From Octopus vulgaris (Eukaryota): DNA of 64,000 nucleotides. The notes beneath the pieces are model-generated. The model made no database searches. It saw only the letters and a program-made list of their open reading frames with translations, and was not told the origin of the DNA. Below are positions 14,693-47,406 of the stretch, one piece after another. Position 1 is the first letter of the stretch. The number at the start of each line of letters is the position of its first letter. The translations under genes were made by a program, and so were the position numbers. The DNA lies in assembly GCA_951406725.2 (NCBI GenBank), contig OX597822.1:83452001-83516000 (forward strand), given 5' to 3'.

Positions 14693-14855
14693 CTGTAAAT
14701 GTAATATGGGACAATTATTCGGTAGCCATGATAAAACTCGGAGTTTTATCATGGCTGTCGAATAATTGTCCCATATTACATTTACAGATAAATTCATCTA
14801 TTTACATAATATCGAGGTCCCTTTCTTTCTTTTGTCCTCTTACCTTTTTTATCAA
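14693..14855 (+). repeat. Near-perfect 95-bp palindrome (14693-14787, axis 14740) plus an unpaired tail running into (TA)n; same family as 47050-47406
   Basis: ctgtaaatgtaatatgggacaattattcggtagccatgataaaactc-g-gagttttatcatggctgtcgaataattgtcccatattacatttacag. The tail segment tctatttacataatatcgag is shared with 47349-47368. Confidence 0.92.
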
Positions 14856-17196
14856 TATATATATATATATATATATATATATATTATAGATAGATACATA
14901 CATAGATAAATAGATAGATAAATAAATAGATAGATAGATAGATAGATAGATAGATAGATAGATAGAAAGAAAGAAAGAAAGAAAGAAAGATAGATAGATA
15001 GATAGATAGATAGATAGATAGATAGATAGATAGATAGATAGATAGATAGATAGATAGATATTTAATTCCTACGTATTTTTCACCATTGCAGCTACGCACG
15101 TTACACCATTGCAGTTATTTGGAACTCAGTATTGGATGTTCCAAGTGTATTTGGGTGCTTAACCGCAATGGCTTATCAAGGAAAAACTTTATTGCATCCG
15201 TTAGAGAAATCTCTGTAAAAGAATGCAATAAAGTGTCCCTCTGATCATCCATTGCAGTGAGGGCAATGCACAGGCAGGAAACTGATATGGAGTTGAGACG
15301 GCATGCATAAAAACACGCACGCAAATACACGTACGTACGTATTTATTTGAAGATAGACGTTGGACCTAGAACAAGCGTGAATTTAACTTACACATATATG
15401 GAAAATAGTATGCTAGACAAATATTGTGGGGGCACATGTCTTGCAGTTTATATTGTTTGCTTAGATCTTGCAGAAGAATAACAAATAGCATAAGAATAAC
15501 AAACGAACACCTCGATTCTTCAAAAGCTTCGATACAGATTTGTTGATACTTATATGAAACAAACTTGTTGCAATTTCTGACAACAAAAGCAACAGCAGTA
15601 ATAACAACAACAACAAAATAATGATAATAAAAACAACAACAACAATAATAATGATAATAATAATAATAATAATAGTCACGGTAATCCTAATAACAACAAT
15701 AACATGCATATTTAATCATGTTCATAAATTATGATTAAATATAAACACGTGTATATGTATAAGATATTATGAATAGCCATGTATGTATATGTACACACAC
15801 ACACACACACACACACACACACACACACATACACACACATACTATACGCTTGAATTTACTTACATACATATATATATGTTTGTGTATGTGTGTGTGTGTG
15901 CATGTGTCTACGCGTGCGCGTATCTGCGTGTACTTGTATACTTATATACGCGTAGATTTTACGTGTCTGTCTGTCTGCATATATATATATATATATATAT
16001 ATATATTTGTAATATATGTGAAATAAATAAATACAAATAAATAAATTGGTTGTGTGTGTCTACATATACATACATATTATATTATATTAAATCTATAATA
16101 TATACATATATATATATACACACATACACACACAGGGAGACATATATAAACTGATAGATCAATAAATAAATAGATGAATAGATAGATAGATAGATAGATA
16201 GATAGATAGATAGATAGATAGATAGATAGATAGATAGATAGATAGATAGATAGATAGATAGATAGATAGGTAGGTATGAGAAAGTAAACATATTTAGGTA
16301 ATAAATCTGCGGGCGAATCTACGGGAAACGGCGCCAAGAGGACATAAATAAATGAAAGACTTTGAGTTGGTAGACAAAAACTCCGTGATTAATGGAAATA
16401 CTGAATTGATAATTCAATGTGTCGATGCTACTACACCCGCATACACACACGCACCTACGCACAGCACCTACACAGGCTTACATATATAGGCACAGGTGTT
16501 GCTGTTTGGTAAGAAGCTTGCTTTCCAATCACATGGTTCCGGGCTCAAACCCACTGTGGATTTGAAAGAAGCCCGTCATGTATATATATATGTATGTATG
16601 TATGTATGTATGTATGTATGTATGTATGTATGTATGTATGTATGTATGTATGTATGTATGTATGTATGTTTGTATGTATGTTTGTTTGTATGTATGTATG
16701 TATGTATGTATGTATGTATGTATATATATATATACACAGATGGATAGACAGATAGATAGAGAGATAGAGGAGAGATAGAGATAGAGAGAGAGGTAGAGAA
16801 TGTGAACCTGTGATGCTCAATATAGAATACACTAAACAGTGCACAGATGGTTTAAACTTGCAATCCAAAATGTTCCCGAGGACTAAGTCCGCGGGGGTAG
16901 AGAGTGGCCATAGGAGAAATCCTGGTGAACACACATAGGGATAATAATGCATATAAACTAACAAAACCGCTTGGGCTAAGATATATAGGGAAAGCAAAGA
17001 CCGAAAATATTCAGGCGATGAACATTCATGCATTAGACGATACATAACGCAATAGTAACAAAGCAAACTTACAAACTGTGCAAAGATACAACAAACTAAG
17101 TAGAGGCTCGCAATTGCGTCATAAAGTTTCGCAAAAAGTAAAACAGTAGTGAAACATTAAGTAAATCCGGCCGCCTTCTTCAGGGAGGATATATAT

Positions 17197-17560
17197 CTTT
17201 TATATTTTACTTGTTTGAGACAATAGACCGCGGCCGTCCTTGGACACCACATTGAAGAATTTTTAGTAGAATTAATCGACACCAGTGCTTAATTTTTAAG
17301 CCTGGTACTTATTTTAATTGTGTGTTTTGACGAACTGCTAAGTTGTGATGGCGTAAATACACGAGCACCTGTTGTCAAGCGCAGGTGGCGCACAAACACA
17401 CGCACAAAGACAAACACACATGTATACGATCTTCTTTCACTTTCCATCTACCAAATACACTCAGAAGGCTTTGGTCGGCCCGTGGTTATAAAGAAGAGTC
17501 TCGCCCAAAGTGCCACACAGTGGGACTGAACCCGAAACTATGTTGCTAGTTCTCACTACA
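17197..17560 (-). mobile_element. CORE-type SINE, diverged, near full length
   Basis: Reverse-complement match to the head/core (cagtgggactgaaccc) and the tail (ttttacttgttt...gcggcc) of the 31004 copy. Confidence 0.75.
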
Positions 17561-18127
17561 CAGATAGGCCCATATATGGGTGTGTGCATGTGTGCGTGTG
17601 CGTGTTTGTGTGTGTGTGTGTGTGTGTGTGTGTGTGTGTGTGTGTGTGTGTGTGGATATATGTATACATGAACTATTCTGTGCAGATATATATGCATTCA
17701 CGGTGACACTTATACATACATACATAGAAATAATGTAGACGGAAATATACCTGTCAATATTGTGGAAGTTTGTTTTTAATATTTTCACATTTTTCCGAAA
17801 AGCACTCGTTTATATATACATAAACATAGTCATATATACATATATAAGCGTATAAATTTATATTTATAAATAACTATATACATAAATATATATATATATA
17901 TATATATATATATAACTATATCTGCATATATATGAATATATATGAATAAACATATGTTTGTATGTGAAAACATATATAGATGTATATGTATGTATATATA
18001 TATATATATATATATATATATATATATATATATATATATATATATATATATATATATATGTACGTATGTATGCATGTGTATATATATATATATACTTTAT
18101 TTTAAGCAGCAGAAAATTCAACAAAAT

Positions 18128-18165
18128 CTGTTACTCTGAGTTTCTCGTTGCCGTTCATCAGACAG
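18128..18165 (-). ncRNA. Minimal type I hammerhead ribozyme motif (family B)
   Basis: Minus strand reads CUGU-CUGAUGA-a CG gcaa CG a-GAAA-CUC a GAG-UA-ACAG. Stem I is CUGU/ACAG, the core is intact, stem II is short with a GNRA loop, stem III is palindromic, and the predicted cleavage triplet is GUA. It sits in an 80-bp island flanked by (TA)n. Confidence 0.8.
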
Positions 18166-45430: not shown

Positions 45431-45599
45431 GGATTTTGAAAGGAAATAATCATTCAGAGGTTGTAATGATGAATATTTCTTTTTCTCTACTACGTTGTCT
45501 ACAACAGTTGATTTGAAGTAACATTTACAGAATGGACTATTAAAATAAGAAGAAATGGTATAAAGATAATATAAAATGAAATTTAAAAAATTAAAATAT

Positions 45600-46970
45600 A
45601 CAAATCAAGAAAATAATGAAGGAGGGAAAATTCAAGACCTACTCAAAACATTTTACATCCGCAAGCCACAATTATTGACTTCAAAGTTAATATAATTATG
45701 ACAGAAGGAAAACCGTGCTATTCCACAAAGATTCTTGTTGAGTTAGAAAGAAAAGTGATGAACTCTTTCAAGTCGTCATGTAGAACAACGATGTCATTGA
45801 AATCGCAGACTTTGTGATTCTCTTCGTTCTAAACAAATATGTCTGACATAGGACTCTAAAGAGATGAGATGTTGAGGCTGTTACATAACAGAAGCAGGCA
45901 TACTTGAACAGAATTAGAGATAAAATACTAGAATAATAACATAACTTAAACCTTTGTTAACATTTAACATTTTAATAGTTAAATAAGTCGACGAGCTGGC
46001 AGAACCGTTACCAGGCCGGGCAAAAATGCCCAACGACATTTCTTCTGAGTTCAAATTCCGCCGAGATCGACTATGCCTTTCTTCCTTTCGGGGTCGATGA
46101 TATAAATACTAGTTGAAGACTGGTTTCATTGTAATCGACTTACTGCATTCTTCGAAATTGCTGGCCTTGTTTCAAAAATTGAAATTAACATTAGAAGAAT
46201 CAATACATGTGTTAAGATTCTTAACCAAGAATCTTAGCACTGCTTAACACAACCCCTTTCCCGAAAAGTAATGAGAAATTACCTTTAAAACTAAAGGCTC
46301 GAACCATCGACTATCAGTTACTAAACAAGTTACCAACATTCTCGCTCATCTCCAGATAAAACTATTGCAATGTAACGCAGTAAAGCTGCTTCCCATTGCA
46401 ATAGCACACTAACGAGAAGAGCTAGAAACAAAATATTACCCGCATCAAATTCAACCGAACTAGTAAAATCATGTGGTTAAATCTACCATATAGCATCAAT
46501 GTATCAATAAGTGCAGCATGTTCATCAATATCAAGTTTCCATCCCAGATAGTTGTCGCAAAATATTCAATAAAATCAACGTAAAAAGTGAGCTTAATATT
46601 TGCCTCCTCGACATAGGTTTTCAAGTATGTAGCCAGAATAACTATACTAATATAACTACACCATAACCTTTAAGTACCTGAAGATCCCTTGGCCACTGAA
46701 TTCCAAGAAGCAAATGCTTGAAGAAGTAGCTGGTAGAAAGAGCTGATATTTCAGGACTCGATCCGCTAAAATGTTACTTTGGACTAACAGGGAATATCCT
46801 AATAGGATGATTTGCACAACGTGTGACTGCGTTCACAAATAGAAACAAGTACTGTATATCGCCACTATCTAGATCCTTGGGGAACCGGAAGGACGTTATT
46901 ATCAACACAAATGCATAGAACGAGGTACTAGGAGTAATATTTCTACTAGTTTTGATCAAAGATAAAATTT
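45600..46970 (+). mobile_element. Decayed Penelope-like element ORF (RT plus GIY-YIG endonuclease), interrupted by a Meta-type SINE at about 45985-46190
   Basis: Motifs occur in the expected order: RKTVLFHKDSC*VRKKSDELFQVVM*NNDVIEIADFVILFVLNK (45706; cf. LFDVTMGS.DGAE.CELVGL.IL), IGL*RDE (cf. GLYRDD), GSNHRLSVTKQV (46296; cf. SNHP), NRTSKIMWLNLPYSINVS (46453; cf. R.IIWFNPPYS.NV), KIFNKINVK, and CYFGLTGN...AF...PLS (46772; YIG motif). Confidence 0.8.
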
Positions 46971-47049
46971 GAAATCCCATTCAAATATATATTATCTATA
47001 GGCAATATATATATATATATATATATATATATATATATATATATATATA

Positions 47050-47406
47050 TAAAATAAGATGTGACAATTATTCGGTTGCCATAATAACACTCCGCGTTTC
47101 GGATGTCGGGGCGGAAATCTGCTCCGGCATCTCGTCAGTTATTAAGAAAAAAACGAAAATGCTATGAAAATGACCGGGAAATTACTAAGACGTTCCTTGC
47201 CTTTGTTTAACGGTCATTTTCATAACATTTTTGCTTTGTCTTAATAACTGACGAGATGCCGGAGCAGACTTCCGCACCGACATCTGAAACTCGGAGTTTT
47301 ATTATAACAACCGAATAATTGTCACATCTTATTTTACAGAGATATTCCTCTATTTACATAATATCGAGCTCCCATTCTTTCTTTTGTTGTCACGCTATTA
47401 CTATTA
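47050..47406. repeat. Fold-back element (47050-47336, arms about 126 bp, 34-nt spacer) plus a 70-bp tail, between (TA)n tracts; pLTR-like, with an HHR in each arm
   Basis: Outer ends taaaataagatgtgacaattattcggttg / caaccgaataattgtcacatcttatttta. Inner ends tatgaaaatgaccg / cggtcattttcata. Confidence 0.92.
47242..47304 (+). ncRNA. Type I hammerhead ribozyme motif (family A)
   Basis: UAAUAA-CUGACGA-GAUGcCGG...CCGaCAUC-u-GAAA-CUC g GAG-UU-UUAUUA. It has a 6-bp stem I, a long stem II, a palindromic stem III and a GUU site at 47298. The mirror copy at 47082-47144 (minus) has GUG and a stem III mismatch. Confidence 0.75.

Follow-up and report, generated by a model that had tools for sequence, protein, structure and literature searches.

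Head-to-head insertions of Penelope-like elements (PLEs), with inverted pseudo long terminal repeats (pLTRs), palindromes at the junction and a tail on one side, have been described, and self-priming on an antisense template was inferred as their origin (PMC3846280). The tail of the inverted pLTR has also been described elsewhere and was ascribed to resolution by the element's endonuclease (PMC8557442). The pLTRs of metazoan PLEs contain minimal type I hammerheads whose palindromic helix III is suited to dimer folding (PMC4209133). In vitro, the protein of Poseidon, a PLE of Anolis, cuts and extends both target strands, and two start sites of reverse transcription delimit the tail; the protein is a predicted dimer, and hammerhead mutants still insert (PMC11167929). 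In the twin priming of L1, both target ends prime complementary DNA (cDNA), and joining at short complementarity or by end-joining leads to an inversion (PMC2912911, PMC11702581). A recent preprint on retrozymes does not, in its accessible text, treat the question of PLE inverted ends (10.64898/2026.07.22.740005). Here, a 64,000-nucleotide stretch of the Octopus vulgaris genome was analyzed (assembly GCA_951406725.2, contig OX597822.1, positions 83,452,001 to 83,516,000; hereafter the window), in which palindromes of two unrelated repeat families, designated A and B, are centered on stem III of a hammerhead motif. Both are head-to-head insertions of PLE 3′ ends in (TA)n, a known type of PLE insertion. 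They probably originated from two separate cDNAs, one for each end of the cut target, which were then joined.

A scan of the window for local palindromes placed the family A palindrome at 14693–14787, with a 1-nucleotide (nt) center at 14740 and 47-base-pair (bp) arms containing two mismatches. The family B palindrome spans 41628–41710, with its center at 41669 and 41-bp arms containing one mismatch. Both centers are the 1-nt loop of hammerhead stem III, in agreement with an earlier reading of the window made from its letters alone (the sequence-only reading). That reading was also correct in that the palindromes mirror only the sequence downstream of stem III and lack the hammerhead core and stem II; the arms match the corresponding sequence of the motifs at 47248–47298 (+) and 18161–18128 (−) by 85% and 89–94%, respectively. 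Two features had been overlooked. Each palindrome bears a tail of 60–70 nt on one side only (Table 1), and the motif at 47242 is itself one arm of a head-to-head pair (~ 47051–47409) whose joint lies ~ 50 nt upstream of the core and not at stem III.

The 2.8-Gb assembly that holds the window, to which all genome-wide counts refer, contains at least 7,479 family B arms, many of them identical, and at least 5,020 family A arms (27 for the control) with 86–91% identity. The solo family B stub of the window has at least 30 identical genomic copies, and (TA)n surrounds nearly all copies examined of the two families. The parent of family B was traced through long head-to-head pairs; two patterns aimed at the parent gave just 4 and 1 loci. 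Upstream, the long pairs include a reverse transcriptase (RT)-like stretch and an open frame that has GIY-YIG-like features. In one such pair (L232/L233), 71 residues of the RT-like stretch share 40% identity with the GLYRDD region of protein P0003 (E 2e-14), which we take to be a PLE-type RT motif, and a direct Pfam search returned no hit for the stretch. An open frame of 146 residues ends ~ 1 kb upstream of the B motif, has five homologues and matches proteins at E 3e-29. One of these homologues has a weak, sub-threshold Pfam GIY-YIG hit (E 0.036); the frame itself gave no direct Pfam hit. Because the RT-like and GIY-YIG-like stretches lie upstream, we regard family B as the 3′ terminus of an endonuclease-bearing PLE, possibly a Neptune-like one judging by its motifs. 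Family A shares the anatomy of family B and is provisionally assigned to the PLEs on that anatomy. An inverted, 5′-truncated copy with a one-sided tail, a feature of endonuclease-bearing PLEs, is present in 155 of 156 distinct B pairs, where the tail measures ~ 70 nt, and in 42 of 46 A pairs. The sequence-only reading was right in taking both elements for PLE ends.

Head-to-head B pairs were counted genome-wide by exact matches to a 17-mer and to its reverse complement, separated by defined gaps. The 156 distinct pairs comprise the 50 listed at gaps 0–30, the 50 listed at gaps 31–60 and all 42 at gap 29, as well as 15 from each of two wider ranges and incidental ones, with identical 40-nt contexts merged. 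The counts of asymmetry, centers and joints exclude twenty pairs that either contain inserts longer than 2 nt or do not have exactly one tail. In the B pairs with one tail, one outer end lies at a distal 3′ boundary, with the tail, and the other at a proximal boundary, at which 122 of the 155 tail-less arms share their last base, before TAT. There were no tail-to-tail pairs within 30 nt. The interpretation of the outer ends as RT start sites is carried over from a different PLE (PMC11167929). Of 92 asymmetric B pairs, 51 have a tail-less arm that extends further upstream than the tailed one, 33 of them by at least 10 nt; the tail-less arm thus holds sequence that is absent from the tailed arm, and vice versa. 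At stem III joints, 35 of which are distinct in the sample and 36 genome-wide after removal of other joints by inspection, the center base relative to the tailed arm is split 18:17 (one misfiled locus was removed by eye). Microhomology at the B joints measures 0–4 nt; 38 of 100 joints outside stem III have none, and both loop-free symmetric joints and CTAG joints occur. The combination of two precise outer ends with short or no microhomology at the joint is that of twin priming. At a site that is polymorphic 84:33 in family B, the alleles of the two arms agree in 97 of 97 loci, which points to one RNA or one source copy as the template. Two random RNAs as templates are rejected, with 0 of 97 loci discordant at this main polymorphic site.

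The scheme favored for these palindromes would begin with a cut (TA)n target, both ends of which would each prime their own cDNA. The two primings would be coupled, one per element start site, and the template would probably be one RNA, or RNAs of one source copy. End-joining, or a switch from one cDNA to the other, would then connect the cDNA 3′ ends. Joining could take place at any complementary word, stem III being one convenient self-complementary word; it would be favored because it is the best such word in B, the same property that permits the dimer fold of the ribozyme. A broader proposal, for which we consider the case evenly balanced, is that twin priming is obligate for PLE integration. 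One RNA would be held at both tail ends by a dimeric protein while a separate cDNA is primed from each target end, and the joining of the two cDNA 3′ ends would give rise to the inverted pLTR, the one-sided tail and the palindromes at the junction; the hammerhead fold may set the cDNA stops. Antisense template and self-priming would then be unnecessary.

The competing explanation that fares best, although it is unlikely, is that self-priming, for example on an antisense template (PMC3846280), produces a symmetric free inverted dimer, from either arm of which the endonuclease removes the tail at random during integration. Such a dimer would account for the one-sided tail, the evenly split center and the identical alleles on the two arms, and the tail has indeed been attributed to endonuclease resolution (PMC8557442). 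However, it requires a hairpin, and only 23 of the 100 B joints outside stem III have hairpin geometry in either orientation, and 38 are devoid of microhomology. Furthermore, the ends of the tail map to RT start sites in the Poseidon system (PMC11167929).

Both hammerhead motifs have the parts of a type I ribozyme, namely the CUGANGA and GAAA boxes, stems I–III and an NUH cut triplet, and these are conserved across copies. Fifty of the 81 examined B arms read CUGAUGA...GAAAC-UCAGA-GUA-ACAG, most others differing at U4 or N7, and 25 A arms carry the hammerhead boxes. The assignment is made from the core motif and the stems because Rfam scans matched no hammerhead model to either motif and returned solely microsatellite-driven microRNA noise. 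A strict hammerhead descriptor made for this work, which gave 17 hits in 1.8 Mb, was set aside. Older B subfamilies have CCGAUGA or CCGACGA in place of CUGAUGA and a better paired stem II; the youngest subfamily has the canonical core and a weaker stem II. Among the self-complementary words of B, stem III pairs most strongly (−7.8 kcal/mol versus −3.8 kcal/mol for the word CTAG), and in A the stem III palindrome is longer, with 6 + 6 bp.

The distribution of the joints bears on the proposal of the sequence-only reading that one cDNA folds back at stem III and serves as its own template, a mechanism that would tie the ribozyme to the inverted ends. B pairs number 187, 272, 557 and 1,190 at gaps 0–30, 31–60, 61–90 and 91–120, respectively, 2,206 in total. 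At gap 29, the register of stem III, there are 42 loci, compared with a mean of 7.0 for the remaining registers at gaps 0–60 (a ~ 6-fold excess); 36 of the 42 are true stem III joints, or 1.6% of all pairs. Family A pair counts cover gaps 20–80. They comprise 56 pairs at gaps 20–50, where 22 of the 50 listed are joined at stem III, and 75 pairs at gaps 51–80, where 12 of the 50 listed have a common 4-nt TTTC/GAAA joint (both judged by eye); ~ 50 of the 5,020 A arms belong to stem III palindromes. Reversed control patterns gave 0 loci in the B pair counts and in the A search, and therefore the 42 B loci and the 56 A loci at gaps 20–50 are not due to chance. Stem III is a real but minor joint hotspot that is preferred in two unrelated families. 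Thus, when fold-back axes are mapped genome-wide, the local peak at stem III that the sequence-only reading anticipated is present, but it contains a small part of the B pairs.

Snapping back at stem III is nevertheless a distinctly improbable origin. It is favored by the excess at the stem III register in B, by the stem III joints of A and by the center bases of A, which fall 12:4 in the predicted direction. However, it predicts that the second arm is a subset of the first, and that the tailed arm reaches furthest upstream and supplies the center base in all cases. In B the tail-less arm is the longer one in more than half of the asymmetric pairs, the center base is evenly split, and the joints outside stem III have hairpin geometry with the tailed arm first in 10 of 100 cases, so that a subset arm joined by a hairpin is not the pattern of this family. 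A 1-nt loop would leave a stem of 3 bp in B. Moreover, the 36 stem III joints compare with 330 loci at gap 102, a register ~ 8 times as populated as that of stem III. Of the gap-102 loci listed, 48 of 50 center, by eye, on a CTAG word ~ 11 nt upstream of the first core box. Enrichment at a short palindrome outside the ribozyme core therefore exceeds that at stem III in B, contrary to what the sequence-only reading required. Arm ends are not enriched at the predicted cleavage site (weight 2.0 versus a local mean of 3.4), and the arms of the stem III palindrome do not stop at the cut, since both run through it. Ribozyme cleavage is likely not needed for these insertions. The mechanistic tie between ribozyme and inverted pLTRs was not supported, and the link to the ribozyme reduces to an effect of sequence complementarity on ~ 1–2% of insertions.

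Overall, joints occur all along the element, and their peaks fall on complementary words. Compound joints recur at independent loci (L088, L090 and L119 at gap 46; L120 and L144 at gap 60), which suggests a short second template switch at the joint. Among 19 other palindromes in the examined loci, two have an AC..GT center, and the one of these that was inspected (L080) is family A joined outside the motif, as is also the case at L097.

The ribozyme fold might place the joint, with RNA dimers paired via stem III, or a halt at the 5′ edge of stem I, bringing the two cDNA ends together; this reading does not conflict with twin priming and is about as improbable as snapping back. An extended stem I is predicted, and its 5′ edge is where the largest B hotspot (CTAG, 50–53 nt upstream of the anchor) lies. 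The same edge coincides with a preferred arm stop 53–56 nt upstream of the anchor (L242:1491–1500), which feeds this hotspot of 330 loci, and 10 of 30 unselected B arms stop 53–55 nt upstream of the anchor. However, the predicted extended fold is no more stable than shuffles (z −0.48), and family A also joins at words outside the motif. The preferred stop could instead be a transcript start or a 3′ splice acceptor. It resembles the latter in having a pyrimidine run followed by TAG.

Inverted repeats can invert their spacer, and recombination or template switching between the two arms might have turned around the centers of snap-back products once these had been inserted. This is very improbable. 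The split shows no trend between young and older loci (tail-less arm longer in 41 of 75 and 28 of 53, respectively) and does not vary with the arm length shared (50 of 87 versus 19 of 41), which argues against later flipping, and joints without microhomology are left unaccounted for. An assembly or library fold-back artefact is almost certainly not the explanation: although no short-read contig bridges either center with 31 bases on both sides, the arms differ by point changes, both outer ends are precise, loci number in the thousands, contigs of two other studies (X2 and X5) link the unique left flank to the 14693 arm, and a 54-nt contig (run X2) spans a B stem III center with 24 and 29 bases on its sides.

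Several observations weigh against the origin from two primed cDNAs. The CTAG word is used 8 times more often than stem III despite its weaker pairing, and complementarity alone thus does not set the joint frequencies; a second factor is needed, namely an additional site close to the 5′ edge of stem I at which arms preferentially stop and which the scheme leaves unexplained. Nor does the scheme account for the double copying of one RNA stretch. The center bases of A lean toward the snap-back orientation, and a symmetric hairpin intermediate trimmed at random would likewise give a 50:50 center. At a second site, four loci have differing alleles on their arms, which is near the 2% background. 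No open reading frame is linked to family A. Finally, the evidence consists of the genomic end products of one genome, from which all mechanistic steps are inferred.

The features of the two families in the window are collected in Table 1. A third palindrome (34811–34855) has 22-bp arms and the same ACTC-T-GAGT center word. It has no further copy in 1.8 Mb of examined loci, and a search for a hammerhead core upstream of its arm gave 0 matches genome-wide, so it was not counted as a third family; it is possibly an old stub of another family. Further fold-back elements occur at 10036–10395, 556–875, 20881–21198 and 15162–15258. (TA)n flanks the first three of these, additional fold-back copies of the first two are present in the examined loci, and the first carries a CUGAUGA box; all four are probably head-to-head stubs of other families. 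A 572-bp fold-back at 58119–58690 is 85% self-complementary, and its TA-CGAGGG ends resemble those of a mariner-type miniature element. Two dispersed repeat families have many copies in the window, one at 4291–4870, 12168–12386, 31625–32237, 53804–54043 and 60013–60644, and the other at 9619–9799, 21284–21803, 31003–31470, 47487–48107 and 55990–56709.

Table 1 Family A and family B features in the window.
Feature	Positions	Strand	Remarks
Family A tail-less arm	14693–14739	-	ends at proximal 3′ boundary
Family A palindrome center, stem III loop base	14740	.	
Family A tail-bearing arm	14741–14855	+	mirrored part 14741–14787, one-sided tail 14788–14855, then (TA)n
Family B solo tail-less stub in (TA)n, type I hammerhead motif	18095–18172	-	core 18161–18141, stem III loop 18137
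Family B tail-less arm	41628–41668	-	
Family B palindrome center, stem III loop base	41669	.	orientation not expected if tail-bearing arm folded back
Family B tail-bearing arm	41670–41771	+	mirrored part 41670–41710, tail 41711–41771 with short deletion, then (TA)n
Family A tail-less arm of second head-to-head pair	47051–47181	-	hammerhead core 47138–47097, damaged stem III
Family A tail-bearing arm, type I hammerhead motif	47197–47409	+	core 47248–47289, stem III loop 47293, predicted cut after 47298

The inverted ends and one-sided tails of PLEs are already known; what is added here is population evidence for two coupled primings. Self-priming on an antisense template is the origin that has been inferred in print for the inverted ends, and the in vitro study does not settle what follows first-strand synthesis. 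The octopus genome, with its thousands of young and short insertions, allows the models to be told apart statistically, and the outcome favors two primed cDNAs. The literature searched contained no statement of twin priming for PLEs and no tie of stem III to DNA joints; it did not extend to subscription papers or to the PMC11167929 supplements, which may bear on novelty.

The hammerhead motifs of families A and B resemble those described in metazoan PLEs in their core boxes, short stem I and small palindromic helix III. A role in RNA processing was proposed in that study, whose accessible text does not mention helix III as a DNA joint (PMC4209133). The insertions are like the inverted pLTRs of endonuclease-bearing PLEs in the head-to-head 5′-truncated copies, the palindromes at the joint, the tail at one end and the (TA)n targets, with a tail of ~ 70 nt here versus 30–40 nt in those elements. 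For these, self-priming and trimming of the tail by the endonuclease were inferred (PMC3846280, PMC8557442), whereas the 156 pairs analyzed here favor two independently primed cDNAs. In the study of Poseidon, the accessible text does not apply the results to inverted ends and reports no strand difference in the start site (PMC11167929); the genomic data add a strict coupling of one start site to each target end. This coupling is a clear bench prediction for the existing in vitro PLE system.

The proposed process resembles twin priming in its working but not in the structure of its L1 products, and is best read as a PLE form of L1 twin priming. The inverted and direct pieces of a twin-primed L1 do not overlap, and this separation is absent from the octopus pairs, both arms of which duplicate the same stretch. 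In L1 the second primer lands internally (PMC2912911, PMC11702581), whereas here the second start is fixed 70 nt from the first. Both cDNAs would consequently copy the same stretch and yield a palindrome, in contrast to L1 pieces, which are not duplicates of each other.

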